Assembly: GCA_000992345.1 (NCBI GenBank)
Contig: LBUA01000001.1
Coordinates: 13,542-77,541 of the forward strand
Origin: Parcubacteria group bacterium GW2011_GWD2_38_12
GTDB lineage: Bacteria; Patescibacteriota; Minisyncoccia; GWC2-36-17
DNA: 64,000 nucleotides
Direction of reading: 5' to 3'
Below, piece by piece: positions 1,799 to 49,916 of this stretch. Position 1 is the first letter of the stretch; each line of letters begins with the position of its first letter. The position numbers and the translations under genes were made by a program. The notes below the pieces were generated by a model, which saw only the letters and a program-made list of their open reading frames with translations, was not told where the DNA came from and did not search any database.

Positions 1799-1825
1799 AC
1801 GATTTTTAAATCTTAGACGCGTTAT

Positions 1826-6091: not shown

Positions 6092-6634
6092 ATGGTTACA
6101 TTGACGAGTATAGCGGTTTTATCCGGGTTGCTCCTTGGTATTACTGCTCCCGGAAATATAATTTTAGACAGTAAAAATGATGATGTAAGGGGATTTGCGG
6201 TTGAATTTGCGATAGATGGCTGGTCGGAAAATAGTATGAAGGCCAGTAATTCAAGCGCTATTAAGATTTCTCAGAAGACTATAAAAAATAGGAATTACAT
6301 TGCCATTGAAAGTGGCGATGTAACTGTTACGGCTTATTCTTCGACTTTTGACCAGACGGATGATTCCCCGTTTATTATGGCTTCGGGAAAATATGTTTAT
6401 GACGGAGCAATCGCGGCAAATTTCTTGTCTATTGGCACTAAAGTCCGTTTTCCGGAAAAATACGGCGATAAGATATTCACTGTAGAAGACAGAATGAATA
6501 AAAGATATGATTATAGGATGGATATTTGGATGGAAACCAGACAAGAAGCTCAAAGTTTCGGTTTAAGAAAATTGAAATATGAAATAGTGAAAGATGATTC
6601 TGATGCATTTCATAATATTGTAGCTGTTAAATAA
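6092..6634 (+). CDS. 3D-domain cell-wall-associated protein (MltA/YuiC-like 3D domain)
   Basis: N-terminal hydrophobic signal/anchor. The C-terminal YSSTFDQTDDSPFIMASGKYVYDGAIAANFLSIGTKVRF...RMDIWM segment matches the 3D domain with its conserved Asp residues. Confidence 0.7.
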   Translation: MVTLTSIAVLSGLLLGITAPGNIILDSKNDDVRGFAVEFAIDGWSENSMKASNSSAIKISQKTIKNRNYIAIESGDVTVTAYSSTFDQTDDSPFIMASGKYVYDGAIAANFLSIGTKVRFPEKYGDKIFTVEDRMNKRYDYRMDIWMETRQEAQSFGLRKLKYEIVKDDSDAFHNIVAVK

Positions 6635-7779: not shown

Positions 7780-8436
7780 ATGATCAAATTTGATATAATA
7801 ACAATCTTCCCCGAAATTTTCAGCTCGTATTTTGGTAAATCCATTTTAAAGCGCGCGCAGGAGAATGAGTTGATAAAAATCGGCGTTCACGATTTGCGTA
7901 AATTTTCCATTGACAAACACAAAAAAGTGGATGACAAAGCATATGGCGGAGGACCGGGGATGGTGCTCAAAATTGAACCAATTGTTAGAGCAATTGGTTC
8001 AATTTTGAAGTTAAAAGTTAAAAGTAAAAAGTTAAAAGTAAAAAGCAGAGTTATATTATTTTCTACTCGGGGGAAAAAATTCAACAATAAAATTGCCGAA
8101 AAATTGGTAAAATATGATCAATTGATTTTAATTTGCGGTAGATATGAAGGGGTGGACGAGAGGGTAGCCAAATATATTGCCGATGAGGAAATATCCATTG
8201 GAGAGTATGTTTTGACTGGCGGTGAAATTCCGGCGATGGTTTTGGTGGATGCGGTTAGTCGCCATATTCCCGGAGTTTTAGGCAAGCAAGAATCATTAGA
8301 GGAAATAAAGGGATCGTATCCGGTTTATACGCGTCCAGAAGTTTTTGAGATGAGAAATAAAAATTTGCGCGTGCCGAAAGTTTTATTATCCGGCGATCAT
8401 AAAAAAATAGAAGAATGGAGGGAGAAATTTCACTAA
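7780..8436 (+). CDS. trmD: tRNA (guanine37-N1)-methyltransferase TrmD, carrying a Lys-rich insertion from an AAAGTTA heptamer repeat
   Basis: [13 protein letters not shown]-terminus, [16 protein letters not shown] and [11 protein letters not shown] motifs. The annotated ORF start at 7744 overlaps the upstream terminator, so the start is placed at Met 7780. Confidence 0.9.
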
Positions 8437-10588: not shown

Positions 10589-11644
10589 TTGAAACGCTTC
10601 ATGCTTCATATTTTGTGTTTCATGACTGTGATGGATTTACAGCAAAAATTAGAGAATATAAAGAAACTATTTAATCAAAAAATAAGAGATGTAAAAAATC
10701 TTGAAGTTTTGGAAAATTTGCGAGTTCAGTTTTTGGGTAGGAAAAGCGAGTTGGTGGAATTTTTAAAGGGGATTAAAAATTTAACCGAAGAAGAAAAAAG
10801 GAAATTTGGCCCCGTTGCCAATCAATTGAGGCGGGAGATGGAAAAATTAATGGAAGACGCAAAGAAATCGCTTAAAATGCGCGAGGTTGGTAAATTGATG
10901 GAAAAAGATCGTATTGATATTTCTGCTCCAGCCAAAAAAATATCTCAAGGACATTTACACCCATTAACTTTGATACAAAGGAAGATTGAGGATATTTTTC
11001 AGTCTATTGGTTTTGAAGTTGTTGAAGGACCAGAGATAGAGACGGAATACTATAATTTCAATGCCCTAAATATTCCGGCTGATCATCCAGCCAGAGAAAT
11101 GCAAGATACTTTCTGGCTCCAAACTCCAAACTCCAAACTCCAAACTCCAAAGTTACTAATGCGAACACAGACTTCATCTGTTCAGATTAGATACGCGGAA
11201 AATCATCAACCGCCGATTAGAATTATTTCCCCGGGCAGAGTTTTTAGGTTTGAAGCAACTGACCAAACTCACGATATTCAATTTCATCAAATTGAGGGAT
11301 TGATGATTGATAAAAATATTTCCCTTGCCAATCTAAAGGGAGTTTTGGAAATTTTATTTAAAAAGCTTTATGGCAAAGGAGTGGAGGTTCGTTTTAGGCC
11401 CAGTTACTTTCCCTTTGTGGAGCCGGGAGTGGAGGTAGATATGAAATTCAGAGGAAAGTGGATGGAAATTGCGGGCGCCGGAATGGTGCATCCGAAAGTT
11501 TTAAATACCATGAAAATAGATAGTCGCATTTGGCAGGGATTTGCTTTCGGTATGGGGCTTGAGAGATTGGCAATAATTAAATATGGGATTGATGATGTGA
11601 GACTGTTTTCATCGGGAGATTTGAGATTTCTGAAACAGTTTTAA
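10589..11644 (+). CDS. pheS: Phenylalanine--tRNA ligase alpha subunit, with an in-frame ACTCCAA heptamer-repeat insertion
   Basis: Class II aaRS motifs (FRPSYFPFVEPG, GAGMVHP, GMGLERL). The insert reads LQTPNSKLQTPK. Confidence 0.9.
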   Translation: MKRFMLHILCFMTVMDLQQKLENIKKLFNQKIRDVKNLEVLENLRVQFLGRKSELVEFLKGIKNLTEEEKRKFGPVANQLRREMEKLMEDAKKSLKMREVGKLMEKDRIDISAPAKKISQGHLHPLTLIQRKIEDIFQSIGFEVVEGPEIETEYYNFNALNIPADHPAREMQDTFWLQTPNSKLQTPKLLMRTQTSSVQIRYAENHQPPIRIISPGRVFRFEATDQTHDIQFHQIEGLMIDKNISLANLKGVLEILFKKLYGKGVEVRFRPSYFPFVEPGVEVDMKFRGKWMEIAGAGMVHPKVLNTMKIDSRIWQGFAFGMGLERLAIIKYGIDDVRLFSSGDLRFLKQF

Positions 11645-11668: not shown

Positions 11669-12079
11669 ATGGAAGAATTTAAAAAAACTTTAGGACATGG
11701 AAAAGAAGAAGAACATTCTCCCGAAGATTTAAGAAGAGAGATAGTGGAGATGATAGCAAAAATAAAAAAAGAAAACCCGAACGATCCCCATCTTATTAAT
11801 ATAAATACAGAAAATATTAAAGAAGAAGATAGGGAGATACAAAAAAGATATGAGCAACTCTTAAATAAAGGACTGACGTTGACCGAAGAGGAGTATAATG
11901 AATTTTTTAATGAATTTGTCATATATAGAAATAAGGTTTTTAAAGAAATTGAAGAGAAAAAGACACATTCAAGTCGCTTAGACTTTGTTGGTTATTTGGG
12001 AAATAAAATAGCAGGGAAAATTTATGTTCCCTGTAGGAAAAATTGGCCAAATAAAGGGGAGAGACCATTAAAACCATGA
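11669..12079 (+). CDS. Hypothetical highly charged (Glu/Lys-rich) protein between pheS and pheT. Its stop overlaps the pheT start (ATGA).
   Basis: ORF only. No recognisable motifs. Confidence 0.35.
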   Translation: MEEFKKTLGHGKEEEHSPEDLRREIVEMIAKIKKENPNDPHLININTENIKEEDREIQKRYEQLLNKGLTLTEEEYNEFFNEFVIYRNKVFKEIEEKKTHSSRLDFVGYLGNKIAGKIYVPCRKNWPNKGERPLKP

Positions 12080-14637
12080 AAATCTCATATAATTGGTTAA
12101 AAGATTTCGTGAACCTAAAAAGATATTCGGCTCCAGAGCTAGCGGATTTATTGACCATGAACTTTGCGGAAGTCGATGGGATTAAAACGCTTGGCGATGA
12201 TTTGATTTTTGATTTGAAAATTTTACCAGATAGAGCTTCGGATTGCCTGTCGCATTATGGAGTGGCGCGTGAGTTAGCTGCGCTAACAAAGTTAAAAGTT
12301 AAAAGTTTAAAGTTTAAAGTTAAAGAAAGTAAAAAAATAAATATAAAAGATTTGATAGAAGTTGAAAATCAAAATCCGGAGATTTGTAAAAGATATATTT
12401 CGCGAGTAATTTTGGATGTTAAGGTCGGGGCTTCTCCGAAATGGTTGAAAGAGAGACTTGAATCATTGGGTCAAAAATCTATAAATAATGTAGTGGACGC
12501 GACAAATTATGTGATGTTGGAACTGGGGCAACCGATGCATATTTTTGATTTTGATAAAATCAAAAATATGCAAGTTAAAAGTGAAAAGTCCATGCCTACC
12601 GGCAGGCAGGTAAAAGCGCAAAGTGAAATTTCAAAAATTATAATCCGAAAAGCAAAAGTCGGAGAAAAGATAACAACCCTAGATAATCAAGAAATAGAAC
12701 TAAATGAAGATGTTCTTGTAATTGTCGGCTCTGATACTCCAAACTCCAAACTCCAAACTCCAAGCTCTATTCTGGCAATTGCTGGCATAAAAGGCGGAAA
12801 GAAAGCGGAAATAGATCAAAATACCAAAAATATTATTTTGGAATCAGCGAATTTCAGCGCAGAGGCAATACGCAAAGCTTCAAAACTGACTGGAATAAGA
12901 ACAGAGTCTTCTGCCAGGTTTTCCGCTGATTTAGATCCTAATCTAGCGGGTATTGCTATTGAAAGATTGGCATCTTTATTGGTTCAAATTGCTGGAGGGG
13001 AAGCAGTTAGCGGGAAAATAGACATTTATCCACGCAAGGTTATGAGTGCGAAAGTTGCTGTTTCTTTGAATGACGTTATAAGTTTATTGGGAGAGAAAAT
13101 ATCCGAAAAAGAATTTTTGAGTATTTTTAAACAGCTAAACTTTAAGGTAGAAAAGATTTATCAAGAGAAAGAATTAATGAAATTGGCAAGGAAATTTATT
13201 GGCAGGCCATACAAATATGGGGCAAGCACAAGTCAAGATGCTCCCGAAACATTTGATTGCTCCAGTTTTGTTCAATATTTATATTGGCAAATTGGCATTG
13301 AGATTCCCAGAATTTCAGTTGAGCAGTTTTTATTTGCGCGTTCCATTGAAAAGAAAGATTTGAAAATTGGCGATCTGGCTTTTAGAAAAGGAGGAAGGCC
13401 ATATTTCTATAAAGAAACTCCAAGGGGTATTGGACATGTGGGGGTTTATATCGGGAAAGGCAGGGTTGTCCATGCATCCGGAGACAAAAAGAAAGTAATC
13501 GAAGAAAAATTAGAAACATTTTGCAAGAAAGACTTTCGCGGATTTGGAAGAATAGCTGATTTAGGGGATGAGGCTTTTGTCATCGAAATCCCCACATATA
13601 GGAGAGATATCAGAATGAAAGCTGATATTATTGAAGAGATTGGCCGGATTTACGGTTATCAAAATATAAAATCAAAATTGCCTGAAGGTATTCTGATGCT
13701 GCCTCAAAGAAATGATGAGATTTTTTGGGAAAATTTATCAAAAAACGCTTTAGTATCCACTGGATTTACTGAAGTTTATAACTACTCTTTTATCGGTGGA
13801 AAAGATTTAAAGGCGGGTTTTATTATTCCTGAAAATATTTTAGAACTTCAAAATTATATTAGCGATGACAAAAGATATTTGCGACCAAGCTTGATTTTTG
13901 GTTTTCTAAGAAATATCGAAGAAAATTTCAGGTATTTTAATGAGACGCGCATATTTGAAGTTGGCAAAATTTTCACCCTTAATGCAAAAGAAAAAATTTC
14001 TGAGAGAAAGTTTATTGGCGGGGCCATTTCCCTTAAAGGGAAAAGAAATAGCGCAAAAGCTGAGGAATTTTATGAATTAAAAGCCACCGTTGATTTATTG
14101 ATGCAGAAATTGGGTGTGCCGGAATTTTGGTATGATGATTATCAGGCCACGCCCGAGATCATTGAAGGAAAAATTTGGCACCATTTGCGTTTAGCGGAAA
14201 TTAAAATAGGTGACGAGAGAGTCGGATTTATTGGAGAAATAAATCCGAATGTCATTGGAAATTATGATATAGACGGAAGAGTGGCGATGTTTGAAATTGA
14301 TTTTGAAAAATTAGCGTGTCTCGCTAACGAAGATTTTATTTATAGTCCTATATCAAAATTCCCAGCCATAGAAAGAGATTTGGCGATACTTACTCCCATT
14401 AATGTGAAAGTTGATGATGTTTTAAATGTCCTGGAAAATATAGGCGGCCAGTTGCTCATAAATACGGATTTATTTGATGTTTATGAAGGCGATAATATTC
14501 AGGAGGGTAAAAAGAGTTTGGCCTTCCATTTGATATTCCAGTCGCGGGAAAGAACTTTATCCGATAAGGAAGTGGATGAAATTTTAGCCGAAATAATCGT
14601 TGCTTTATCCGAGGAGGGTTGGGAAATTAGAAGATAG
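12076..14637 (+). CDS. pheT: Phenylalanine--tRNA ligase beta subunit that lacks the N-terminal OB (B2) domain and carries an inserted NlpC/P60 domain plus two heptamer-repeat insertions
   Basis: MKISYNWLKDFV N-terminus, B3/4, a B5 motif pair (FKVEKI ... IPTYRRDIRMKADIIEEIGRIYGYQNI) and an FDX-ACB C-terminus. The NlpC/P60 block (RPYKYG, FDCSSFVQY, GHVGVYIG, VHAS) is embedded inside B5. Confidence 0.9.
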   Translation: MKISYNWLKDFVNLKRYSAPELADLLTMNFAEVDGIKTLGDDLIFDLKILPDRASDCLSHYGVARELAALTKLKVKSLKFKVKESKKINIKDLIEVENQNPEICKRYISRVILDVKVGASPKWLKERLESLGQKSINNVVDATNYVMLELGQPMHIFDFDKIKNMQVKSEKSMPTGRQVKAQSEISKIIIRKAKVGEKITTLDNQEIELNEDVLVIVGSDTPNSKLQTPSSILAIAGIKGGKKAEIDQNTKNIILESANFSAEAIRKASKLTGIRTESSARFSADLDPNLAGIAIERLASLLVQIAGGEAVSGKIDIYPRKVMSAKVAVSLNDVISLLGEKISEKEFLSIFKQLNFKVEKIYQEKELMKLARKFIGRPYKYGASTSQDAPETFDCSSFVQYLYWQIGIEIPRISVEQFLFARSIEKKDLKIGDLAFRKGGRPYFYKETPRGIGHVGVYIGKGRVVHASGDKKKVIEEKLETFCKKDFRGFGRIADLGDEAFVIEIPTYRRDIRMKADIIEEIGRIYGYQNIKSKLPEGILMLPQRNDEIFWENLSKNALVSTGFTEVYNYSFIGGKDLKAGFIIPENILELQNYISDDKRYLRPSLIFGFLRNIEENFRYFNETRIFEVGKIFTLNAKEKISERKFIGGAISLKGKRNSAKAEEFYELKATVDLLMQKLGVPEFWYDDYQATPEIIEGKIWHHLRLAEIKIGDERVGFIGEINPNVIGNYDIDGRVAMFEIDFEKLACLANEDFIYSPISKFPAIERDLAILTPINVKVDDVLNVLENIGGQLLINTDLFDVYEGDNIQEGKKSLAFHLIFQSRERTLSDKEVDEILAEIIVALSEEGWEIRR

Positions 14638-14854: not shown

Positions 14855-16999
<2,145 letters not shown>

Positions 17000-17003: not shown

Positions 17004-17567
17004 ATGCAAAACACAAAACACAAAACACAAAATAAAATTATACCTCAAAAATTTTTTGAAAAGCCAACATTGGAAGTGACGGAGAATTTACTTGGGAAAT
17101 ATTTGGTTAGAAAAACAGGTGGTAAGACGATTGCTGGAATAATAACGGAACTGGAAGCATATGTTGGTGAAACTGATTTAGCGTGTCACGCCGCAAAAGG
17201 GCGAACAAAAAGGACAGAGATTATGTATCAAGATGCCGGAACTCTGTATGTTTATATGATTTACGGGATGTTTTATTGTTTGAATGTCGTGACCGAGAAA
17301 AAAGATTTTCCTTCGGCAATATTGATACGGGCAGTAAAAGTAGACGGTATTGATTTTATGGCGACAAGTGGTCCGGGGAAATTATGTAAAATTTTAAAAA
17401 TAGATCGCAAATTCAACGGGTTGAAATTAGGCAAGAAAAGCGGACTTTGGATAGAAGATAGGGGGATAAAAATAAAAAAATCACAAATTATAAAAAGCAA
17501 AAGAATAGGGGTTGATTATGCCGGACATTGTAAAGATTATTTGTGGAGGTTTTCTATTAAAATTTAA
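17004..17567 (+). CDS. mpg: DNA-3-methyladenine glycosylase (Mpg/AAG family); N-terminus encoded by a CAAAACA heptamer repeat
   Basis: TELEAYVGETDLACHA, YVYMIYGMFYCLNVV and GPGKLCK motifs of the AAG fold. Confidence 0.8.
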   Translation: MQNTKHKTQNKIIPQKFFEKPTLEVTENLLGKYLVRKTGGKTIAGIITELEAYVGETDLACHAAKGRTKRTEIMYQDAGTLYVYMIYGMFYCLNVVTEKKDFPSAILIRAVKVDGIDFMATSGPGKLCKILKIDRKFNGLKLGKKSGLWIEDRGIKIKKSQIIKSKRIGVDYAGHCKDYLWRFSIKI

Positions 17568-18584: not shown

Positions 18585-19862
18585 TTGGAGCATTCCGGCA
18601 AATTTTTAATAAAAGGTGGAAGAAAGCTGAGCGGCGAGATTGATATAATGGGCAGCAAAAATGCGGCAACACCGATATTGGCTGCGACATTGTTGACGAG
18701 TGAAGAATGTATTATCGATAACATCCCTTTGATTGAAGATGTATTTAGATTGATTGAAATTTTAAAACACCTTGGCGCAGAAGCTGATTTTATTGGTAAG
18801 AGAAAATTGAAAATAAGAGCAAGAAACATAGACGTAGGTAGATTAAATAATGCAGGCGTTGGCAAATTAAGATCCTCGGTTTTATTGATGGGGCCGCTTC
18901 TCGCTAGATTCAGGAAAATTCAAACCAAAAATCCGGGAGGATGTCTTATCGGTAATCGTCCGCTTGATACTCATCTTGAGGCATTTGTTGATTTAGGAGC
19001 CAAGATTGCGCCAAATGGCAACAATCTTGATATAATTTTAAAAAATAAACCCAAAGATGAAATAGTGCTTAAAGAATTTTCCGTAACTGCGACGGAAAAT
19101 GTCTTAATGTTTGCTTCATTGATGCCACAAAGAACAATTATAAAAATAGCCGCAATGGAGCCACATGTACGAGATTTAATAAAATTTTTACGCGCCATGG
19201 GCGTAAAAATAAAATTATTAGACAGTCATACCATTGAAGTAGTGGGAGTAAAAAAACTTCGCGGCGCAAAGCATAAAATTATTCCGGATCAAATAGAGGC
19301 GGGAACGTTTTTAATAATTGGAGCTTTGATAGGCAGTGATATTTTAGTAAAAAATTGCAGAATAGATCATTTGGATTTAATTTTAAAAAAGTTGAAAGAA
19401 TTTAATATTGATTATAAGTTTGAAAAGCGAAGGGGAAATTTTGCCGATATTAGAATTAAGACAAATTATCCATTAAGAGCGGCAAAGGTTCAGGCGATGC
19501 CATATCCGGGAATTCCTACGGATTTGCAATCAATCTTTGGTGTCTTAGCCACTCAAGCGCAGGGGACAAGCATGATTCATGACCCATTATTTGAAGGAAG
19601 ATTCAAATATCTGGATGAGCTTGTGAAAATGGGTGCTAATGTTGTTGTCTGCGATCCGCACAGAGCATTAATTACCGGTCGGACTCAGCTTCAAGGAACT
19701 AATATAACAAGTTATGATTTACGCGCGGGAGCGTCTTTGATTATTGCAGGCTTGATTGCTAGCGGAGAAACTGTTATAAATGACGCATATCAAGTGGATA
19801 GAGGATATGAAAGGATAGAAGAAAGGTTGCAGAAGTTGGGAGCGGACATAACCAGAATTTAG
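18585..19862 (+). CDS. murA: UDP-N-acetylglucosamine 1-carboxyvinyltransferase (TTG start likely)
   Basis: KFLIKGGRKLSGEIDIMGSKNAATPIL, GNRPLDTHL, and a C-terminal DRGYERIEERL segment that aligns with the E. coli MurA C-terminus. Confidence 0.9.
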   Translation: MEHSGKFLIKGGRKLSGEIDIMGSKNAATPILAATLLTSEECIIDNIPLIEDVFRLIEILKHLGAEADFIGKRKLKIRARNIDVGRLNNAGVGKLRSSVLLMGPLLARFRKIQTKNPGGCLIGNRPLDTHLEAFVDLGAKIAPNGNNLDIILKNKPKDEIVLKEFSVTATENVLMFASLMPQRTIIKIAAMEPHVRDLIKFLRAMGVKIKLLDSHTIEVVGVKKLRGAKHKIIPDQIEAGTFLIIGALIGSDILVKNCRIDHLDLILKKLKEFNIDYKFEKRRGNFADIRIKTNYPLRAAKVQAMPYPGIPTDLQSIFGVLATQAQGTSMIHDPLFEGRFKYLDELVKMGANVVVCDPHRALITGRTQLQGTNITSYDLRAGASLIIAGLIASGETVINDAYQVDRGYERIEERLQKLGADITRI

Positions 19863-19936
19863 AATTTTGAATTTAGAATTTAACGGTATTTAAAACTTAT
19901 ATTCTAAATACTACATTTTATAATTCTTTCAAGAAC

Positions 19937-20944: not shown

Positions 20945-20954
20945 GATTTTTGTC

Positions 20955-21075
20955 CAAATTTTAGAGCTGAAAGCGAATAAAATTTGGTTACAAAATCTTA
21001 CCCTGTTAAATTCCCGCGAAGCGGGGGCGCCGAAGGCGCATTTAACAGGGTGTGCTGGGCTTTGCGATTGTTTAA
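20955..21075 (+). repeat. Family-1 structured repeat element, copy 1 (shorter variant), directly upstream of the GT4 gene
   Basis: Shares about 50 nt of 5' extension with copy 2 (ttttagagc.gaaagc.aataaaattt) and the nested hairpin core cttaccctgttaaat-[ccccgcGAAGcggggg]-[cgccGAAggcg]-catttaacaggg. Confidence 0.7.
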
Positions 21076-22311: not shown

Positions 22312-22372
22312 AGATTGCTTCGTGCTTGATTGACCACAATCACCTACTGGGTCGGCAATGATAAAATGGTGT
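22312..22372. repeat. Family-2 repeat element, copy A; its inverted counterpart lies at 55393-55460
   Basis: agattgcttcgtgcttgattgaccacaatcacctactg equals the reverse complement of 55405-55444 with one mismatch. It contains the palindrome TGATTG-acca-CAATCA. Confidence 0.7.
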
Positions 22373-23435: not shown

Positions 23436-24587
23436 TTGCGAGTTGACACTTTTATTTTTGTCAATCGTCAATCGTCAATTGTCAATCGTTTTTTGAAAGT
23501 AGCAATTTCATTAATTATTATTTTTCTTATTTTAGGCGCTATTTTGTTTTTTGCAGTTCCTTTTTTGTTGCAAAATATTTCTTTTCCCGGATTTTCGTCT
23601 AGTGGCTCAGGCATTGCCGGAATTTTCAAGACCATTGATGGGGGCGATTTTTGGTTTTCAAAAAATAATATTGAATCTTCAAAGTCAACGATTGGATCCG
23701 CAAATATTTTGGATTTAGTTCTTGACCCTTTTGATAATAATATTATGTATGCGGGTACTAATGGCGCCGGGATTCTTAAAAGCATAAATAATGGCGAGAG
23801 CTGGAAACGATTAGTTGATGACAATAACTTATTGGCATCTAGCGCGGTTATCAATCAAATTGCGATTAACCCTCGTGACCCCGCTCATATTTTTATTGCC
23901 GCTTTTCAGGGAGGCAGTGGCGGCATTTTTAAAACAGAAGATGCGGGACGTAGTTGGAAGCAGCTTTACATCGTTCCGTTGGCGAAACAAGACATTAAGA
24001 CGTTGGTGATTGATCCTTTAAATCCTAATTTTCTTTATGCTGGCACTACGGCTGGAGGGTTTTTGGTCAGTTCTGACGGGGGGGAGTCATGGAGAGCGCT
24101 TAAATGGTTTTTCGACCCGATAAAGAAGATTGTAATAAATCCGTTTTCATCGGCAGAGCTTTTTTTGGTTCTTGAAAACAGGGGGTTTTATAAGACGGCC
24201 GATAGGGGAGAGAACTGGAAAGATTTAACCCATACTTTTTCTGGCTATCCGTCGGCTATTAGAGTAGAGAATATTGTTTTAGATCCTCAAAGACCCAACG
24301 TTTTGTATATGACTTCCATGTATGGATTATTGAAATCTACTGATGGCGGAAATAGCTGGAGGTCGCTTAAAATTTTAGTGTCGCCCGAGACTCTGCCCGT
24401 GCAAGACATCGCAATTGATAGAAATAATTATAAGATGATTTATATAAGTGCAGGATCTAAGATTTATATTTCTAATGATGAGGGAGAGAATTGGACTGTA
24501 AAAAGTTTAAATACCGGAAAAAACGCGAAGCTAATTAGGATAGATTATAAAAATCCAAAAGTAATTTTTGTGGGGATACATAAATAA
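23436..24587 (+). CDS. Membrane-anchored BNR/Asp-box repeat beta-propeller protein (Ycf48/sortilin-like). Start codon uncertain (TTG).
   Basis: N-terminal TM helix, then six or more S-x-D-x-G-x-(S/T)-W Asp-box repeats (NNGESW, DAGRSW, DGGESW, DRGENW, DGGNSW, DEGENW). Confidence 0.7.
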   Translation: MRVDTFIFVNRQSSIVNRFLKVAISLIIIFLILGAILFFAVPFLLQNISFPGFSSSGSGIAGIFKTIDGGDFWFSKNNIESSKSTIGSANILDLVLDPFDNNIMYAGTNGAGILKSINNGESWKRLVDDNNLLASSAVINQIAINPRDPAHIFIAAFQGGSGGIFKTEDAGRSWKQLYIVPLAKQDIKTLVIDPLNPNFLYAGTTAGGFLVSSDGGESWRALKWFFDPIKKIVINPFSSAELFLVLENRGFYKTADRGENWKDLTHTFSGYPSAIRVENIVLDPQRPNVLYMTSMYGLLKSTDGGNSWRSLKILVSPETLPVQDIAIDRNNYKMIYISAGSKIYISNDEGENWTVKSLNTGKNAKLIRIDYKNPKVIFVGIHK

Positions 24588-32133: not shown

Positions 32134-32202
32134 ATTCGCTATTCGCTAATCGCTATTCGCTAATCGTTTTTTATGATTTGCGTTTTGCATTTTGCGTTTT
32201 GC
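32134..32202. repeat. Intergenic tandem repeats (ATTCGCTA/ATCGCTA units, then GCGTTTTGCATTTTGCGTTTTGC)
   Basis: Direct reading of attcgctattcgctaatcgctattcgctaatcg ... gatttgcgttttgcattttgcgttttgc. Confidence 0.8.
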
Positions 32203-32213
32203 TTTTTAGCAAG

Positions 32214-32712: not shown

Positions 32713-32792
32713 TCTTGTCTAAATGTGTTTTTTTAGCTAAACTTAAAACATATAACATGAAATATATAACATGAAACACAAAGCATTTTTTA

Positions 32793-34337
32793 TTGAATTT
32801 TTGCTCCATGTTTCATATTTCATGTTCCACAAAGTTGGCTTCTATTGAAGAAATTCGCGATAATCGCATAAAAAAACTGGAAGAATTAAGGAAATTCGAC
32901 ATAAATCCATATCCCGCAAAAAGCGGAAGGAATTTTTCTATTGCCGATATTTTGACTGATTTTGATAATTTAGCGCAAGATAAAAAAGAAGTGATTTTAG
33001 CCGGAAGGATTACTTCTTTGCGCGGTCAAGGCGCTTTGATATTCGTAGATCTGAAGGATGGCAGTGGGAGTATCCAACTTTTTTTTAAAAAAGATAATTT
33101 TAGCGACAGTGATTTTGAAAAATTACAAAACTTGTTTGATATAGGAGATATTGTGGAATCCGGCGGTATTTTGTTCGTCACTAAACGTGGCGAGAAAACT
33201 CTGGAAGTTAAAAATTTCAGGATTTTGACTAAAAGTTTAAGACCGATACCCACGGAATTTTACGGACTTTCCGATATTGAAGAACGCTATCGTAGAAGAT
33301 ATTTGGATCTCCTATTGAATGATGATGTTAGAGAAAAATTCATTAAGCGCAGTAAAATTATAAATGTTTTGAGAGAATTTTATAATACAAAAGGATATTT
33401 GGAGGTGGAAACGCCGATATTACAGACAATCCCGGGTGGAGCAACTGCCAAACCATTTAAAACACATTTAAATGCGCTTGATCTTGATTTATATTTGCGC
33501 ATTGCCCCGGAACTTTATTTAAAACGTCTTTTGGTGGGTGGGTTTGAAAAAGTTTATGAAATAGGAAGGTGTTTTCGCAACGAAGGAATGGACGCGACTC
33601 ACAACCCCGATTTCACGATGCTTGAAAGCTATAGCGCTTATGAAAATTACAAAGATTTAATGATTATGGTGGAACGATTGATGGAATTTTTGATTGCCAA
33701 AATCTATCCCGACGCGGAAAACTATAGAATAGAATATAAAGAACAAAAAATTATTTTTAAGGCCCCATACATGATAATAGAATTTACGGAGCTGTTAAAA
33801 GAACATTTTAAGATTGATTATGATGAAATGTCTGAAGACGAATTATTTAAATTTGCGGAAAAAGAAATTAAAAATAGAAAAAGTGATTTAAAGTTAAAAC
33901 AGGGTATGCATAAAGGAAAAATAGCTGATGAGCTTTATAAGGAGTTCATAAGAAGTGAAATCATTCAGCCGATATTTATGATAAATCATCCTCTTGAACT
34001 TTCTCCGCTTGCTAAAAAAACAGAAGAAAATCCCTTGAAAGTGGAAAGATTTCAATTGATTGTTGCGGGGATTGAATTAATGAATGGATATTCCGAGCTC
34101 AATGATCCAATTGATCAGCATAAAAGATTCAGAGAGCAGGAAAATATCGGAAAATCCGGAGATGAGGAAGTGCAAAGACTTGATATTGATTATATTGAAG
34201 CATTGGAATATGGCATGCCTCCAGCTGCCGGGCTTGGTATTGGCGTTGAACGGTTAGTGATGCTTCTGACTGATTCCCAGACCTTGAGAGAATCCATGCT
34301 TTTCCCGACAATGAAACCTCGCGGTGAGGGAAGATGA
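32793..34337 (+). CDS. lysS: Lysine--tRNA ligase (class II). True start probably a few codons downstream of the annotated ORF start.
   Basis: N-terminal OB anticodon-binding domain, class II motifs 1-3 (FRNEGMDATHNPDFT, ...GIELMNGYSELNDP..., GLGIGVERLVMLL). Confidence 0.9.
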   Translation: MNFCSMFHISCSTKLASIEEIRDNRIKKLEELRKFDINPYPAKSGRNFSIADILTDFDNLAQDKKEVILAGRITSLRGQGALIFVDLKDGSGSIQLFFKKDNFSDSDFEKLQNLFDIGDIVESGGILFVTKRGEKTLEVKNFRILTKSLRPIPTEFYGLSDIEERYRRRYLDLLLNDDVREKFIKRSKIINVLREFYNTKGYLEVETPILQTIPGGATAKPFKTHLNALDLDLYLRIAPELYLKRLLVGGFEKVYEIGRCFRNEGMDATHNPDFTMLESYSAYENYKDLMIMVERLMEFLIAKIYPDAENYRIEYKEQKIIFKAPYMIIEFTELLKEHFKIDYDEMSEDELFKFAEKEIKNRKSDLKLKQGMHKGKIADELYKEFIRSEIIQPIFMINHPLELSPLAKKTEENPLKVERFQLIVAGIELMNGYSELNDPIDQHKRFREQENIGKSGDEEVQRLDIDYIEALEYGMPPAAGLGIGVERLVMLLTDSQTLRESMLFPTMKPRGEGR

Positions 34338-35848: not shown

Positions 35849-35906
35849 CTTTTAGATTCTATTTAAGAAGTTAACAATTAACAATTAACAATTAATAGCT
35901 AATTCA

Positions 35907-37184: not shown

Positions 37185-37190
37185 TCATAA

Positions 37191-37224
37191 CATTTGACGT
37201 CTGACATTTGACGCCTGACATTTT
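37191..37224. repeat. Intergenic tandem repeat CATTTGACG(T/C)CTGA x2.5
   Basis: catttgacgtctgacatttgacgcctgacatttt. Confidence 0.8.
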
Positions 37225-39365: not shown

Positions 39366-40541
39366 CTAATATTTTATCTTAATAAAATCATTATATAATT
39401 TTTCGTATTCTAAGACAATATTTTCAATAGCGTATTTTTGAGCCGCTTTTTGGGAGTTTTCCGACATTTTTTGTCTTAAGGTCGGGTTTTCTATTAATTT
39501 GGTTATCTCTTTTGAGAGTTCGATAAAGCTGTACCTTTCCGTTATGAGACCGGTTGTTCCATGTTCTACATATTCATCGATTGGGGATTTGGCGACAATT
39601 TGCGGCAGGCCTAGAGCCATTGCCTCAAATATCGGCAAGGGCTGATTTTCGGTATCTGATGCGGTAATAAAAATATCATTTGCAGCCACGGCATCGATGA
39701 AATTTTGGTCTATCAACATGCCAAAAAATATGACCTTGTCTCTAATGTTTAATCTTTTCGCGAATTTTTCAAGATTTTTTCTCTCCGGTCCATCGCCAAT
39801 TAAGGAAAGTTTTATTTTGGGATATTTTGGCGAAAGAAGCGCAAAAACTTTCAAGAGTTCATGGATTCTTTTCTCGTAGGTAATTTTTCCGAAATAAACT
39901 AAAGAAAATTCTGGCAAACCACAACGTTTTTTTAGTATATCTTTTTGCGCTGATGGTTTAAATTTAGAAATATCTATTGAGTTGGGAATAATAGAAACTG
40001 GAGCAGTAAGACCGTTTTTGATAAGATTCTCCGCAATGGTTTTTGACGGTACAATGACTATTTTACAGGAGTTATAAAATTTAACAATTTCTTTTTTAAG
40101 GAGGAATTCCGAAAGAAATGATCGACTTTTTATTATATGTTCTATATAGTTGGCATAAAAAGTATGGTGGGATCCGATTAGGGGAAGTTTTAAGATGCGA
40201 GCGACTTTTCGCGCTTCGTGGCCGGCGAAAAAGGGCGTATGAGCATGAATAACATCGGGATTTAATGAAAGAATATCCCGAAAGCCGGGGTTTATGGGAT
40301 GGAAGATATTTTTCAGATTAAAATATTCGTTTTTTGCTCTGTAGATTTCTATAAGTTGCGGTTTTTCAAAGTCGTTATCTATATTATTCTCTGATGATTG
40401 GTTTGTGAAAATAGAAACATTGTGGCCGTGATTTGCAAGTTCGTGGCTTAATGTTTGGAGAGAAACAGAAATACTGTTTATGTCCGGAAGAAAAGTGTCG
40501 GAAAAAAAGGAGATACGCATAAAATATGAAACATGTAACAT
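39366..40541 (-). CDS. Glycosyltransferase family 4
   Basis: GT-B fold. C-terminal region FITASDTENQPLPIFEAMALGLPQIV (E-x7-E). Confidence 0.8.
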   Translation of the reverse strand: MLHVSYFMRISFFSDTFLPDINSISVSLQTLSHELANHGHNVSIFTNQSSENNIDNDFEKPQLIEIYRAKNEYFNLKNIFHPINPGFRDILSLNPDVIHAHTPFFAGHEARKVARILKLPLIGSHHTFYANYIEHIIKSRSFLSEFLLKKEIVKFYNSCKIVIVPSKTIAENLIKNGLTAPVSIIPNSIDISKFKPSAQKDILKKRCGLPEFSLVYFGKITYEKRIHELLKVFALLSPKYPKIKLSLIGDGPERKNLEKFAKRLNIRDKVIFFGMLIDQNFIDAVAANDIFITASDTENQPLPIFEAMALGLPQIVAKSPIDEYVEHGTTGLITERYSFIELSKEITKLIENPTLRQKMSENSQKAAQKYAIENIVLEYEKLYNDFIKIKY

Positions 40542-40582
40542 GAAATATGTAATCCGCCGTGGCGGACTTCATGATTCATGAG

Positions 40583-42521: not shown

Positions 42522-44192
42522 TTATTTAATTATATAATTAAATCCTTCCCCCTTTTCTAATTTTCCGGGAGCCAGAGATTGCAATTGTTTTGTTAAATTA
42601 TCATCATACTCCATTAATATAATAACATACGATTTATCATCATAAAAATTTCGCTTTTTTATATCGTTCGGCAATAAATAAATTATATTCTTTTCAAGTT
42701 GGTTGGTTTTTTTATAGCTGTTTGTTATAAACATTGTTGTCTGACTGGACATGGGAATGTTATTGACCAGTGCGCCCCCGCTATTTATTATTACGTATTT
42801 TTTTATATCCCCGGGCAGATTATTGATAAATCGGCCGATTTTAACGTAATTGTCGGAGAAAGCTCCTTTTATATTGGGATTATTAGCATAATTGACAAAG
42901 TATTTTCGATATCCGCTAAATGCCACGTAAAATAAGATAATAAAATATAGTGGCATAATTAATTTCTTGTTGGAATATAGGAAGATTTTCTTTTTAAAAA
43001 AATTATAAAGTGTAAAAGTTCCAAGGCCGGCAAGTATGAATGTTGGAGGGATGGCGCCGATGGATCTTAAAGCATGCGGCAGGCCTTCGGTGCTCAAGAT
43101 TGACGGAGCAAGCATAGCGGAAAACCACGCAAGTAAAAATATGTGTTGCAAGGGGATGGGATTGTGCGGGAATTTTTTCAGTAATTGGTAGCAGAATTTC
43201 AGGAATTTTTTTAAACAGATGAAAATACCGATTAAGAAGAAAATGCCGACAGGCCAGAAAAGCAATGGTGAACCCGCAAAGTTATGCCGCCAATTCCAGT
43301 CGCCAATAAAATTAAATTGCGCAAGTGTCAAAATAGAGCTTTTTATTACTTCTGTTATTGGATTCTCCGAAGCGAAAATCGAAACCTGTCCGGCTCTGCC
43401 GATGAAATCATCCGGATGAATGTAGAAATAATAGAATATCGGCAATGCCGCAAGAAGGGCAAAAGAGCCGTAAATAACGATGTTATAGAAGAATTCTTTT
43501 AATAATTCTTTTTTGTTTGCGCTATTTTCAATATCGCCGGCGCCATTTGTTCTTATTATTTCAATTAATTTAAAAATCAAAACTGCAATTACCACAATTG
43601 GAACGATACGAAAAGCGATATAGGTGTGAAAACCAAGACCCATGAATATGCCAGCCCAAATAAAATTAATATTTTTTTTAGTTCTAAATCCTTTAAATAA
43701 AAAATAAAAAGAAAAAGTCGTGAGAAACGGCAACATAATGGCGCGAAAACCAATACGGGAGAAGTTTGTATGCCAGAAGCTCACAGCGAGAAAGAAAGAT
43801 GATAAAAGAGCAATAATTTTTGAATTATGAAGTATGAATTTTGAATTATGGAGATTATTTTCTGGCTCCAATTCTTGATTCATAATTCTTGATTCATAAT
43901 TCTTTTTGCAAAAAAGCTCTTTGGTCAATAAATACACTCCTAAAACTGTTAATACGCCAAACAATGCGCTTACTAGTCGCAATGCCCACGGCTCATTGCC
44001 GAATGTCGCGACAGATAGCGCCTGGATATTTATAAAAAGTCCTTCGCGACCGTTATTTTCCGGATAAAATATCTTAAAATTTCCAGTTGAGAGCGCTTCC
44101 AGCGCGTTGTTGCCGTTCATAGCTTCGTCCGGGTAAAGTCCGGGCGGCATCTGGGCTATATTGTAGAAACGGAAAAAAGTCGCTATAATCAA
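42522..44192 (-). CDS. Polytopic membrane glycosyltransferase, GT-C superfamily (ArnT/PMT-like), second paralogue
   Basis: N-terminal RFYNIAQMPPGLYPDEAMNG (DE motif in the first extracytoplasmic loop), and more than 10 TM helices. Confidence 0.55.
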   Translation of the reverse strand: MIIATFFRFYNIAQMPPGLYPDEAMNGNNALEALSTGNFKIFYPENNGREGLFINIQALSVATFGNEPWALRLVSALFGVLTVLGVYLLTKELFCKKNYESRIMNQELEPENNLHNSKFILHNSKIIALLSSFFLAVSFWHTNFSRIGFRAIMLPFLTTFSFYFLFKGFRTKKNINFIWAGIFMGLGFHTYIAFRIVPIVVIAVLIFKLIEIIRTNGAGDIENSANKKELLKEFFYNIVIYGSFALLAALPIFYYFYIHPDDFIGRAGQVSIFASENPITEVIKSSILTLAQFNFIGDWNWRHNFAGSPLLFWPVGIFFLIGIFICLKKFLKFCYQLLKKFPHNPIPLQHIFLLAWFSAMLAPSILSTEGLPHALRSIGAIPPTFILAGLGTFTLYNFFKKKIFLYSNKKLIMPLYFIILFYVAFSGYRKYFVNYANNPNIKGAFSDNYVKIGRFINNLPGDIKKYVIINSGGALVNNIPMSSQTTMFITNSYKKTNQLEKNIIYLLPNDIKKRNFYDDKSYVIILMEYDDNLTKQLQSLAPGKLEKGEGFNYIIK

Positions 44193-47306: not shown

Positions 47307-48023
47307 ATGACGATTGACTATTTGGTCAAATGTCAAAGGTTAAAAGTCAAGAAGTTTGCAAAACATATGGAACAACCATTTCAGAGGGCTCAAGCAACGG
47401 TCGCGGTGGAATCAGCTTCTCCTGTGATTAAGTTTAGAAAAGGGGACGCAATAGCTTCGGTGGCGTTGGGGCTTATCATCGGATTTTTTACGCCGTTTAT
47501 TTTAAATAATATCGGACGGACTTTGCCTCTTCAGGATTTTTATTTTGTAATCTTCCCTATTGTGGCGCTGATGGGAATGTGGATTGTTTTTTTGATTGCC
47601 GCGAGAGTTCCGGTTTTGGTGCAGATTACGAAATTTGGCGCAATTGGCGCAGCTAATACCGTAATTGATTTTGGGATATTGAATTTTCTGTCTTTCAAAT
47701 TCCAGATTTTTAGCGGAGGAAGTCTGACTATATTGAATATTATTTCTTTTAGTGTCGCCGTCATAAATAGTTATTTTTGGAACAAGCACTGGACTTTTAA
47801 ATCCGAGCAAAATAATTCCAGCAAACAATTTATAGAGTTTATTGTTGTGTCCGTTATAGGAGTATTAATAAATACTGGAATAGTTTATTTAATGACGACT
47901 TTGGTTATTCCTTTTGCTGGTATTTCCGAGCAGATTTGGTTAAATATCGGCAAATTGATGGCAACATTTATTTCTCTTGCATGGAACTTCGCTGGTTATA
48001 AATTTATAGTGTTTAGAAAATAA
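47307..48023 (+). CDS. GtrA-family polyprenol-phosphate-sugar flippase-like membrane protein with an N-terminal extension
   Basis: C-terminal about 130 aa with 4 TM helices and GtrA hallmarks (KFGAIGAANTVIDFGILNFL ... FWNKHWTF ... WNFAGYKFIVFRK). Confidence 0.65.
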   Translation: MTIDYLVKCQRLKVKKFAKHMEQPFQRAQATVAVESASPVIKFRKGDAIASVALGLIIGFFTPFILNNIGRTLPLQDFYFVIFPIVALMGMWIVFLIAARVPVLVQITKFGAIGAANTVIDFGILNFLSFKFQIFSGGSLTILNIISFSVAVINSYFWNKHWTFKSEQNNSSKQFIEFIVVSVIGVLINTGIVYLMTTLVIPFAGISEQIWLNIGKLMATFISLAWNFAGYKFIVFRK

Positions 48024-48684: not shown

Positions 48685-48766
48685 TTATAGATTTATAACA
48701 CACAGAGCATGCAGCATGAAGTCCGCCGCGGCGGATTCATGTTTCATGTCTCATGTTTTATGTTGC

Positions 48767-49882
48767 ATGAGCTTAGTTTTATATCGTAAATATCGTCCTA
48801 AAACTTTTGCCGAGATTAGCGGGCAAAAGCATATTGTTGAAACCTTGGTCAATGCCATAAAGAGCGGGCGAGTAGCGCATGCCTATTTATTTTGCGGTCC
48901 GCGCGGCACAGGCAAGACGACTATGGCGCGTTTACTTGCCAAAGCATTAAATTGCGAAAAACTTTTAACTTTTAACTTTAAACTTTCAACTGACCCAATA
49001 GAGCCGTGTAATAAATGTTTGAGTTGTCAGTCAATCAACGATGGCAATGCTCTGGATATCATTGAAATAGACGCGGCTTCCAATAGGGGTATTAATGAAA
49101 TTCGCGATTTGCGCGAAGGAGTAAAATTTTCTCCAGCCGCGCTTAAATACAAAGTATTTATTATTGACGAGGTACATATGTTAACCAAAGAAGCGTTCAA
49201 TGCTCTGCTTAAAACACTGGAAGAGCCGCCCCAGCACGCCATTTTTATTTTGGCCACAACCGAAGCGAATAAAATACCAGCGACGATTTTATCGCGTTGT
49301 CAGAGATTTGATTTTAGAAAATTATCGGTCAATGAGATTATAGAAAGGCTGAATGGAATTATAAAAAAGGAGGGGATAGATTGCGGCGATGATGTTGTAA
49401 GCTTTATTGCGACAATCAGCGATGGCGGACTTCGCGATGCTGAGTCATTGCTTGGCCAAATTATTAGCGTATCGAGCGGGAAAATAGATTTGGAAACGGT
49501 TCAGGATGTTTTAGGGATTGCCGACATGAGAGATGTATATGCATTTGTTGATTTGCTTATTAATAATAATCATCAGGAAATTTTTAAATTTATCAATAAT
49601 CTTTTTAATCAGGGAAAAGATATGGCGGAGTTTATGAGATCATCTTCTAATTATTTAAGAAAAATGATGATTTGTCAGATTGACAATGCGCTTGTTGCCA
49701 CCGTAGCCAAAGATATGACACGCGAACAACAGGTAAATTTGTGCTCCCAGGCGCAAAAATTTGAAAATGCCAAGATTCATAAAATAGTGGCCCGACTAGT
49801 GGATGCTGAAAATCAAATTAAAAAATCATTCTCTCCTATTATTCCCATTGAGCTTGCTATGATTGATATTTTAGGGATATAA
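48767..49882 (+). CDS. dnaX: DNA polymerase III subunit gamma/tau (short, gamma-like), with an in-frame TTAACTT (reverse AAAGTTA) heptamer insert
   Basis: YRPKTFAEISGQKHIV, Walker A GPRGTGKTT, Zn module CNKCLSCQ, DEVHML and SRCQRF. The insert reads LLTFNFKLSTD between the Walker A and the zinc module. Confidence 0.9.
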   Translation: MSLVLYRKYRPKTFAEISGQKHIVETLVNAIKSGRVAHAYLFCGPRGTGKTTMARLLAKALNCEKLLTFNFKLSTDPIEPCNKCLSCQSINDGNALDIIEIDAASNRGINEIRDLREGVKFSPAALKYKVFIIDEVHMLTKEAFNALLKTLEEPPQHAIFILATTEANKIPATILSRCQRFDFRKLSVNEIIERLNGIIKKEGIDCGDDVVSFIATISDGGLRDAESLLGQIISVSSGKIDLETVQDVLGIADMRDVYAFVDLLINNNHQEIFKFINNLFNQGKDMAEFMRSSSNYLRKMMICQIDNALVATVAKDMTREQQVNLCSQAQKFENAKIHKIVARLVDAENQIKKSFSPIIPIELAMIDILGI

Positions 49883-49884: not shown

Positions 49885-49912
49885 TTCTAGCTTCTAGCTT
49901 CTAGCTTCTAGC
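49885..49912. repeat. TTCTAGC heptamer x4 tandem repeat immediately upstream of tRNA-Gln
   Basis: ttctagcttctagcttctagcttctagc. Confidence 0.85.
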
Positions 49913-49916
49913 TTTT

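Follow-up and report, generated by a model that had tools for sequence, protein, structure and literature searches.

An excess of heptanucleotide tandem tracts in genes and spacers of a Parcubacteria-group bacterium, probably produced at the DNA level in a 7-nt register

Introduction

The mpg gene of Parcubacteria group bacterium GW2011_GWD2_38_12 begins with a tandem array: from its ATG at 17004 the open reading frame (ORF) reads ATG CAAAACA CAAAACA CAAAACA CAAAA T, and the question that this raises is how a repeat with a 7-nt unit comes to stand in the coding sequence of a conserved protein. We studied it in the 64-kb stretch of contig LBUA01000001.1 that contains mpg (the window, whose numbering we use throughout). 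The host is a bacterium of the candidate phyla radiation (CPR), placed by public records in the Parcubacteria group, in Azambacteria or in Moranbacteria, and its source was aquifer groundwater. A sequence-only reading of the window, made without database searches, had linked the mpg array to repeats in rseP and gyrB and proposed that this genome generates or tolerates 7-nt repeats within ORFs. This was borne out for mpg and rseP, whose arrays belong to a set of 21 heptamer-based tracts; the best explanation of the set, and in our judgement a reasonably probable one, is a process of one lineage that keeps a 7-nt register, either replication slippage or template switching, and whose products selection has filtered.

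Repeats of this unit length have precedents. According to PMC4692102 and PMC4679880, Mrazek, Guo and Shah (2007) found heptanucleotide simple sequence repeats (SSRs) to be the most abundant class of long SSRs in most genomes, and Mrazek (2007) proposed that they arise by slippage over a polymerase contact of ~7 nt; the published heptanucleotide excess has been linked to non-pathogens with large genomes. Another source, PMC3315296, makes no mention of heptamers.

Results

Excess of period-7 arrays

We sampled 81 kb of DNA, comprising the window, 9.1 kb to its left (L179:1-9090) and 7.8 kb to its right (L177:1-7826), and used Tandem Repeats Finder (TRF) and a mismatch-tolerant scan of periods 4-15, with 30 Markov-2 simulations as the null. 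TRF returned 89 rows for the window, including 28 of period 7 and 8 of period 14; 19 of the period-7 rows had at least 3.5 copies, five of them being 100% perfect. The mismatch-tolerant scan identified 12 strong arrays of period 7, 4 of period 14, 1 of period 9 (that of gyrB) and none at the other periods, and the simulations yielded no array at any period. Exact arrays of at least three copies numbered five at period 7 and zero at periods 6 and 8-15. The enrichment of period 7 over periods 6, 8 and 9, which had been named beforehand as the test of the sequence-only reading, holds in the 81 kb sampled.

The excess was also evident against 2.0 Mb of control DNA, made up of 1.28 Mb around gyrB from 80 species (drawn from a GyrB scan of GTDB genomes, best match 63%) and 0.75 Mb around pheT from metagenomes. 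Period-7 arrays scoring at least 12 occur at 0.20/kb in the window vs 0.016/kb and 0.012/kb in the two panels (Poisson P = 2e-11), a density ~13-17 times that of the controls, in which period 7 is likewise the commonest long-unit period, at low density. When arrays were merged, tracts being heptamer-based arrays of period 7 or 14, we counted 21, each 25-38 nt long with 3.6-5.4 copies, built from 16 canonical units (Table 1). The units AAAAGTT (three tracts), AAACTCC, AAACATG and AATTATG (two tracts each) recur, so that the largest same-unit family has three members.

With gene identities taken from Pfam, eleven tracts are translated, namely those in TrmD, PheS, PheT (two), Mpg, RseP, GT39/PMT (two), DnaX, a GtrA-family protein and a 180-aa ORF. 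The other ten are non-coding and adjoin start or stop codons: one each at the murA stop, 5' of the BNR-repeat gene and at the start of the class II aminoacyl-tRNA synthetase gene, two before greA, two in spacers (35871 and 37190), one in each of the GT4 and dnaX leaders, and one between dnaX and a tRNA gene. Non-coding DNA makes up 7.6% of the core yet holds 10/21 tracts (P = 1e-6). All 21 lie within 6569-49914, a span of 43 kb out of the 81 kb searched for them, and no tract scoring at least 10 was found in window 1-6500 or 50000-64000, in L179:1-9090 or in L177:1-7826 (P ~4e-5, calculated post hoc). The heptamer excess is regional (6.5-50 kb) and not demonstrably genome-wide.

Pfam agreed with the gene names mpg, rseP and gyrB that the sequence-only reading had used. 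Its mpg array at 17007-17032 is exact (100% TRF matches), and the N-terminus MQNTKHKTQNK was translated correctly (string ATGCAAAACACAAAACACAAAACACAAAATAAA at 17004-17036). The rseP and gyrB strings are likewise real and were correctly translated, the latter to AAKAAK, but both had been misplaced: that of rseP, given as 25795-25828, is at 25787-25818, which is 8-10 nt earlier, and that of gyrB is at 16094-16115 rather than 16088-16112. The grouping of the gyrB 9-mer with the heptamers did not survive comparison with other species. GyrB orthologues at 59-63% identity carry the repeat peptide unaltered or almost so, the length of the region is unchanged in 74/80 orthologues, and the DNA 9-mer itself is kept in the relatives L170 and L174-L176, with a AAAAGCTGC variant carrying one synonymous change per unit in L173. 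Because the motif is conserved in orthologues and its DNA repeat is kept in relatives, we set it apart: it is a conserved coding motif (an Ala/Lys helix motif) and not a product of the repeat-generating process.

Lineage specificity of the tracts

Relatives for comparison (L170, L172-L176 and L181-L184 among them) came from protein searches in which Mpg, PMT and DnaX were the queries. L170 is a syntenic relative with proteins 68-80% identical over the 20.5 kb compared, and L183 is the closest relative of the window at dnaX (DnaX 92% identical in amino acids, 81% in DNA). A PheT search of metagenome contigs returned only matches at 98-100% or at most 40% identity, and hence no intermediates for polarising events. 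The Mpg tract was found in 0 of 21 aligned relatives at 60-79% identity; those at 68-79% start M(N/K)KILPQKFF or similar, leaving the window protein 8 aa longer at its N-terminus, and the 5' end of mpg in L170 reads ATG AAT AAG ATT. L170 has no heptamer tract in its 20.5 kb vs eight in the matching window segment, and L173 has none in 10.4 kb; L172, L182, L183 and L184 do carry heptamer tracts. The tracts are lineage-specific insertions or overwrites.

Alignments to orthologues and to sequences from the PDB place the coding tracts mostly at what seem to be loop or terminal insertions (TrmD, PheT-221, DnaX, Mpg and PMT). The TrmD tract adds 7 aa relative to L049 and 8 aa relative to the solved TrmD 3ky7, that of PheT-221 adds 8 to 10 aa relative to 83/86 orthologues and 10 aa relative to L170, and that of the DnaX loop adds 9 aa relative to E. 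coli gamma 1xxi and 9 or 10 aa relative to orthologues or structure. The PheS loop is 6-8 aa longer than in the CPR orthologues L005 and L011, and the PMT loop that holds the inverted pair is absent in distant homologues.

Related lineages carry tracts of their own at some of these sites. At the PMT site L182 has a (GAATTAN)x5.6 tract with an inverted partner, and L181 has a short unexpanded inverted repeat only. A heptamer tract of 30-35 nt adjoins the dnaX start in all three lineages compared, with TTNCATG units in the window, (CTARAAC)x4.3 in L183 and (TTACTAN)x5 in L184. In the DnaX loop L184 has its own unrelated (GTCAGTK)x3.1, and L183 has no tract; the loop occurs in the clade in 7-aa and 14-aa forms, and the long form (+7 aa) predates the window genome.

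Among close strains the tracts do not vary. In 13 loci at 99.4-100% identity (L081-L089 and L177-L180), drawn from independent ENA, NCBI, JGI and Logan assemblies, no tract changes in copy number, and indels do occur elsewhere; the Mpg tract, looked up by exact sequence, is identical in all non-identical cluster members. Assembly artefact was considered and ruled out, the tracts being identical in 13 loci from independent assemblies. Because the tracts are invariant among near-identical strains they are not phase-variation switches, with the proviso that consensus assemblies would hide minority alleles.

Strain-level variation of a different kind was observed, as one-off tandem duplications of 15-26 nt. 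At window 11666 a 26-nt or 5-nt insertion recurs in several independent assemblies, and L180 differs from the window at 647, 4955, 8804 and 10641 by duplications of 25, 15, 20 and 24 nt, two of them frameshifting, which may be real or assembly errors.

Seeds, unit steps and removal of stop codons

Four kinds of evidence bear on how the tracts arose, the first being local ancestry. At the end of murA, AGAATTTAA is present once in L170 and L173 (AGA ATT TAA, then unrelated sequence), and the window has this conserved 8-nt seed plus 21 nt, giving AGAATTT four times. At the RseP tract L170 reads CTG AAA GTT GGC (LKVG), and the window unit matches ancestral L(K/E)VG codons, which makes it plausible that these codons were a 12-nt seed.

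The second is change by whole units in place. The tract between dnaX and the tRNA gene has 4.3 copies in the window vs 2.3 in L183, with identical flanks and exactly 14 nt (2 units) fewer in L183, and L184 has (TTTTAGC)x4.3, in which the same C>T change is found in every copy. At this one orthologous site the tract shows classic slip-strand and concerted behaviour.

The third is the fate of stop codons. The AAAAGTT family has three coding tracts, and in each a perfect array would hold exactly one in-frame TAA. In 3/3 one of the two deviations from the array alters that codon; the other deviation affects the corresponding position of a unit 7 or 14 nt further along. Units free of stops form tracts that are perfect or nearly so, and the PMT 14-mer tract stops just short of an in-frame TGA.

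The fourth concerns the encoded peptides. One unit gives one peptide in unrelated proteins (PheS and PheT; TrmD and PheT), and these peptides are shared because the units are; a 7-nt period cannot arise by selection on peptides, and the origin must therefore lie at the level of DNA and not of protein.

Table 1. Heptamer-based tracts of the window and the gyrB 9-mer (window coordinates)
Coordinates	Strand	Repeat	Location	Remarks
6569..6597	+	(AAATATG)x4.1, degenerate	C-terminus of 180-aa ORF	Marginal member
8008..8045	+	(AAGTTAA)x5.4	TrmD, translated	In-frame TAA codon altered by T>A deviation
11117..11151	+	(CTCCAAA)x5.0, perfect	PheS catalytic-domain loop	Encodes LQTPNSKLQTPK; stop-free unit
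12288..12324	+	(AAAGTTA)x5.3	PheT (PheT-71)	Encodes KLKVKSLKFKVK; in-frame TAA removed by A>T deviation
12736..12767	+	(ACTCCAA)x4.6	PheT B3_4 domain (PheT-221)	Encodes TPNSKLQTPS; unit as in PheS tract
16093..16115	+	(AAAAGCCGC)x2.6 (TRF)	gyrB	9-mer; encodes (R)KAAKAAK; outside the heptamer phenomenon
17007..17032	+	(CAAAACA)x3.7, perfect	Right after mpg ATG (17004)	Encodes QNTKHKTQ
19854..19882	+	(AGAATTT)x4.1	Last murA codons (AGA ATT TAG) into spacer	
23460..23489	+	(GTCAATC)x4.3	Upstream or extreme N-terminus of BNR-repeat protein	Absent from orthologous region of L170
25785..25817	+	(TTGGAAG)x4.7 (TRF)	RseP PDZ domain	Encodes LEVGGWKLEVG(D)
32134..32207	+	(ATTCGCT)x4.7 at 32134-32166; (TTTGCGT)x4.4 at 32177-32207	Spacer upstream of greA	
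32746..32826		Inverted pair, CATGAAA-type, 32746-32778 and 32798-32826	Flanks start (32793) of class II (D/K/N-type) aminoacyl-tRNA synthetase gene	
35871..35895	+	(TTAACAA)x3.6, perfect	Intergenic (35848 / 35907)	Unstructured, z = +0.8
37190..37223	+	(ACATTTGACGYCTG)x2.4	Intergenic (37184 / 37257)	14-mer of two diverged heptamers
40518..40580	-	CATGAAG, GC-rich hairpin TCCGCCACGGCGGA, (TTNCATR)x5	GT4 leader, into start ATG (40520-40518)	
43821..43904	-	Inverted pair, 43870-43904 and 43821-43850	GT39/PMT, in frame	KNYESRIMNQELEPENNLHNSKFILHNS; 84-nt imperfect hairpin
47325..47355	+	(GTCAAAA)x4.3, degenerate	N-terminus of GtrA-family protein	Weakest member, 79% matches
48708..48769	+	CATGCAG-CATGAAG, hairpin TCCGCCGCGGCGGA, (TTCATGT-like)x5	dnaX leader, into start ATG 48767	
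48960..48991	+	(AACTTTT)x4.6	DnaX loop between NCE and conserved PC..C..C cysteines	Encodes KLLTFNFKLST
49885..49914	+	(TTCTAGC)x4.3, perfect	dnaX stop (49882) to tRNA (49917-49987)	

The unit of the DnaX-loop tract is the reverse complement of the TrmD/PheT unit, and here too the in-frame TAA has been removed.

Leaders, folding and gene starts

The leaders of dnaX and GT4 have ~62 nt in common, consisting of CATGNAG units, a GC-rich hairpin and TTNCATG units. When folded against shuffled sequences the dnaX leader (z = -4.2), the GT4 leader (z = -3.1) and the PMT pair (z = -3.9) were structured, the greA spacer tracts weakly so (z = -1.9), and single tracts unstructured (z >= 0; e.g., PheS, z = +1.7). 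An Rfam scan of the leaders and the dispersed repeats gave the tRNA as the sole match.

Mechanical ORF calls run upstream through tracts at dnaX (48656-48766), GT4 (40521-40541), greA (32178-32213) and the BNR-repeat gene (23436-23492), and the public gene-call lengths for these four genes vary among assemblies. The true start of dnaX is ATG 48767 (MSLVLYRKYRPKTF), the longer ORF call being a tract artefact. The likely start of GT4 is the ATG with which its tract closes (40520, minus strand); greA probably starts at ATG 32214, and the BNR-repeat gene probably at TTG 23493, judging from its MKVAISLIIIF-like N-terminus.

Other repeats and an unusual PheT domain

A number of other features were observed in the course of these searches. 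PheT aa 376-485 (window 13201-13530) form an NlpC/P60 peptidase-like domain between B3_4 and B5 (Pfam E = 7e-19), and the same is found in the L170 orthologue. A dispersed intergenic element of ~125-200 nt occurs at 20927-21051, 48006-48202 and 53730-53872 (73-87% identity), each copy upstream of a gene of its own; GC-rich hairpins and an inverted repeat, ACCCTGTTAAAT...ATTTAACAGGGT, are part of the element, and Rfam gave no match to it. The palindrome TCCGCC-N2-4-GGCGGA occurs in the window at 6647-6661 (via L179:15737-15751), 40553-40566 and 48722-48735, and in related loci at L183:492-507, L182:1343-1358, L173:2528-2541 and L177:6688-6702. The L183 copy lies inside the DnaX coding loop (RRNPPVGGEGG), and a GC-rich palindrome is therefore also tolerable in frame. 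A further dispersed repeat is a 43-nt inverted pair (22312-22354 and 55423-55465), 93% complementary and 33 kb apart. At 44777-44850 a 17-mer x2.2 is followed by an 8-mer (GCTATACC)x4.2 directly 5' of an 816-aa gene at 44853, the L184 orthologue of which is preceded instead by a (TTYATGY)n heptamer tract that runs into its ATG.

Tract pairs were also seen in other metagenome-assembled genomes (MAGs). In L032 (Peribacteria MAG) two period-8 tract pairs, CTGTCGTG / ACTACAGC and their reverse complements, lie inverted at 922-1003 and 12011-12102, ~11 kb apart; they resemble the terminal inverted repeats of a mobile element, and this lineage favours period 8, not 7. Inverted heptamer pairs are present at L048:2146-2256 in a GC-rich Chloroflexia MAG (CGTAAGT / CTTACGA) and at L028:6565-6712 in a Falkowbacteria MAG (AAATTGG / CAAATTT), in both cases 55-95 nt apart, and echo the PMT pair of the window and the published Xanthomonas pairs.

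Discussion

A probable origin in slippage or template switching

Taken together, the seeding at murA, the whole-unit and concerted change next to the tRNA gene and the removal of stops suggest the following account. The tracts would be made at the DNA level, in an Azambacteria/Moranbacteria-like lineage, through mutation that keeps to a 7-nt register, and the generating step would most likely be replication slippage or template switching, with short sequences already at the site as the material that it amplifies. Selection would then act as a filter, the survivors being those in spacers, at gene ends and in surface loops or termini of proteins where the reading frame is kept; in-frame stops made by the repeat have been mutated away, and the encoded peptides would be by-products rather than selected protein repeats. 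Tracts are fixed within the population and turn over between species only, and most of them probably have no function.

Several observations weigh against plain slippage. Coding and non-coding tracts alike keep to a narrow range of lengths, 25-38 nt, and there is almost nothing between ~2 and ~3.6 copies; the distribution of period-7 scores is bimodal, with 48 proto-repeats of ~2 copies, 2 intermediates and 13 arrays scoring 12-27. The tracts in PheS, PheT-71 and RseP show no net length change relative to L170 (the PheS loop is as long as L170's unrelated loop, the RseP loop has the same net length in both, and PheT-71 is also without net change in 84/86 orthologues), and because of this they look like overwrites, not like +21-nt expansions. 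Tracts of the same family form six pairs where 0.49 would be expected (P = 7e-4). The occupation of the same sites by different heptamers in relatives (dnaX leader, DnaX loop) needs either very few permissive sites or some site-specific fragility or function. The PMT arms match those of L182 at 30/33 and 27/30 positions in flanks of 64-67% identity with third positions at 47-50%, which could mean constraint on the hairpin arms and not neutrality; this could reflect either parallel expansion from one seed or constraint at the nucleotide level. The clustering of tracts in 43 kb comes without a compositional difference on the left flank, and the ~7-nt polymerase contact is a published hypothesis only. 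As a separate matter, a mosaic or horizontally transferred origin was considered for the clustering and found unsupported: tetranucleotide correlations with the core are 0.95-0.97 for the left flank and 0.88-0.93 for the right, there is no break in GC or GC skew, and a mosaic origin fails to explain the clustering because the left-flank signature equals that of the core.

Possible cis-acting elements, one-step writing and copy-and-paste spread

An alternative is that the non-coding tracts next to start codons and the hairpin pairs are regulatory. They could be bound heptad by heptad by an SSB-type protein, serve translation as a leader or standby site, or act as a hairpin in RNA or DNA; the coding tracts would then be spill-over of the same process. 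For the set as a whole we consider this unlikely, and it is a live rival for part of it. The tract that adjoins dnaX in three related lineages although its units differ is what such a function would lead one to expect, as are the TTTCATG-type tracts that run into the start ATG at dnaX, GT4, the class II aminoacyl-tRNA synthetase gene (32793) and an 823-aa gene of L184, the structured ~62-nt leader common to dnaX and GT4, and the PMT arms conserved at ~90% vs ~65% in their flanks. There are also parallels elsewhere: TAACTGA repeats cluster just 5' of start codons, and CspB binds heptamer repeats with one protein per unit (PMC4679880). However, with 16 canonical units in 21 tracts, and units that differ between relatives at one site, the tracts have no shared motif; single tracts are unstructured, none matched an Rfam family, and in spacers as short as these every non-coding tract is bound to lie beside a start or stop codon. 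At PMT, where L181 has the unexpanded inverted repeat alone, conservation can be mimicked when the same seed expands in parallel.

Of similarly low probability, in our estimation, is that each tract was written in a single step. A replication or repair activity peculiar to the clade would take a local heptamer as template and, keeping a 7-nt register, fill in or overwrite a patch of ~25-38 nt. Its targets would be fragile sites that are hit repeatedly (hairpins, gene boundaries, particular loops), and it could copy a tract in mirror image onto the opposite hairpin arm. If true, this would explain the fixed tract length, the length-neutral overwrites in essential genes, the sharing of sites by different heptamers and the regional clustering. 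A related idea is that the tracts adjoining start codons might be translational leaders that act independently of their sequence.

It is rather doubtful that the tracts, or modules of tract plus hairpin, are very small elements, mobile or gene-converting, which would enter permissive sites (coding loops included) or replace the sequence there, as Rickettsia palindromic elements or the small dispersed repeats of cyanobacteria do; for part of the set this too is a live rival. Copying would account for the recurrence of units, often nearby (PheS/PheT, 1.6 kb; TrmD/PheT, 4.3 kb), for tracts that look like overwrites without a change of length, for the dnaX and GT4 leaders as two copies of one 62-nt module, for the dispersal of the GC-rich palindrome TCCGCC-N2-4-GGCGGA, including its presence in the DnaX coding loop of L183, and for the regional clustering. 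However, most units are unique, and where ancestry is readable the unit derives from local sequence (the murA stop, the RseP LKVG). Apart from the two leaders, same-family tracts have no common flanks beyond the repeat, and the tract next to the tRNA gene changes in place by whole units; no transposase-like or integrase-like gene was found among the proteins scanned, in an annotation of the window that was not exhaustive.

Improbable readings: contingency loci and protein-level selection

The position of the mpg tract suggests one further reading, in which it (and others) would be a NeuO-like switch for phase variation by gain or loss of single units: it starts at codon 2, its 7-nt unit is not a multiple of 3, and a one-unit change would frameshift Mpg. 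NeuO and HMW1A are documented cases of phase variation through heptanucleotide repeats. This reading is largely refuted, and we give it very little credence: the 13 near-identical loci show no change in copy number (as consensus assemblies, in which minority alleles are hidden), the Mpg variants all keep the tract, the tracts are short (~4 copies), and most carriers belong to the essential housekeeping set (PheS, PheT, TrmD, DnaX), where an on/off switch is implausible.

Least credible of all is that the tracts are ordinary low-complexity AT-rich coding sequence or selected peptide repeats or linkers, a reading that fits the gyrB 9-mer exactly, and for which AT-rich, Lys-rich proteins with AAA-rich low complexity might be invoked, and that is refuted for the heptamer tracts, holding for the gyrB 9-mer only: composition-matched simulations gave no arrays, the excess falls at period 7 and not at 6 or 9 as protein repeats would favour, 10/21 tracts are non-coding, and orthologues are without them.

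Comparison with known repeats

The tracts are most like the long SSR class with units of 5-11 nt, LSSR(5-11), in having head-to-tail 7-nt units, few copies per tract, many motifs, enrichment in non-coding DNA and a preference for period 7, and in having no assigned function. The tandem 7-nt anatomy, the over-representation and, at one orthologous site, the change by whole units are all found here. The window is unlike that class in its density (~13-17 times the control), in having about half its tracts translated in essential genes, in belonging to a small CPR genome and in its regional clustering. It is thus an extreme case of the heptanucleotide-SSR class in density, in load on essential genes and in its small CPR genome.

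Families that amplify a single motif, i.e., the short tandemly repeated repetitive (STRR) sequences of the cyanobacteria Calothrix and Nostoc, GGGAATC of Xanthomonas, GGGGAYT of Nostoc and TAACTGA of Beggiatoaceae, have 2-6 copies, as in the window. They are mostly intergenic, often just 5' of start codons; of the window tracts 10/21 are non-coding, which is a strong enrichment, and 11 are translated. In Xanthomonas paired inverted tracts able to form hairpins resemble the pairs of the window. However, these families amplify one or few motifs genome-wide, and the window uses 16 units in 21 tracts, with other units in relatives at one site.

The Mpg tract has a counterpart in the poly-psi variable number tandem repeat (VNTR) of NeuO in E. 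coli K1, in which a 7-nt unit at the coding 5' end is read in three frames to give a 7-aa repeat, with the frame set by copies modulo 3. H. influenzae HMW1A has phase-variable 7-bp repeats in its promoter. Both systems are highly polymorphic within populations and concern genes for surface or host interaction, in contrast to the window tracts, which are invariant and lie in housekeeping genes. A non-triplet unit in the 5' coding region is present at mpg; the polymorphism and the class of gene are not those of a contingency locus.

Repeats that sit in frame within conserved genes are also known from the Rickettsia palindromic elements (RPEs) and the small dispersed repeats of cyanobacteria, which are selfish, and RPEs are copies of a 100-150-bp consensus. 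The window resembles them in having repeat DNA in frame in loops of essential proteins, some of it palindromic (the PMT pair and, in L183, the DnaX palindrome), and its in-frame insertions seem to lie at permissive loops. In contrast to RPEs most tracts have no consensus and come from local sequence; dispersed consensus copies were not found, and a common module occurs in the dnaX and GT4 leaders only. Coding repeats with unit lengths divisible by 3 and many copies are reportedly a feature of Borgs. The Borg study PMC9879509 describes tandem repeats that arise rapidly, are specific to lineages and add disordered peptide segments, in all of which the window is similar. It differs in its 7-nt unit, in having ~4 copies and in keeping the frame through net multiples of 3; its units are 7 or 14 nt, in neither case divisible by 3 as in a tandem repeat at the protein level.

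Significance

For annotation, the tracts cause spurious N-terminal extensions and alternative starts (dnaX, GT4, greA, BNR) and put lineage-specific peptides into conserved enzymes. That bacteria prefer 7-nt units among longer simple repeats was remarked on for the cyanobacterial STRR sequences and again in the 2007 survey, with no mechanism demonstrated to date. As a natural experiment on this preference the clade is unusually dense: among the relatives sampled, tracts at orthologous sites arise, change in length, become uniform again and give way to other tracts. As tracts in essential genes make the rules of selection visible (frame, stops, permissive loops), rates of birth and death, seed requirements and step sizes are measurable from existing metagenomes.

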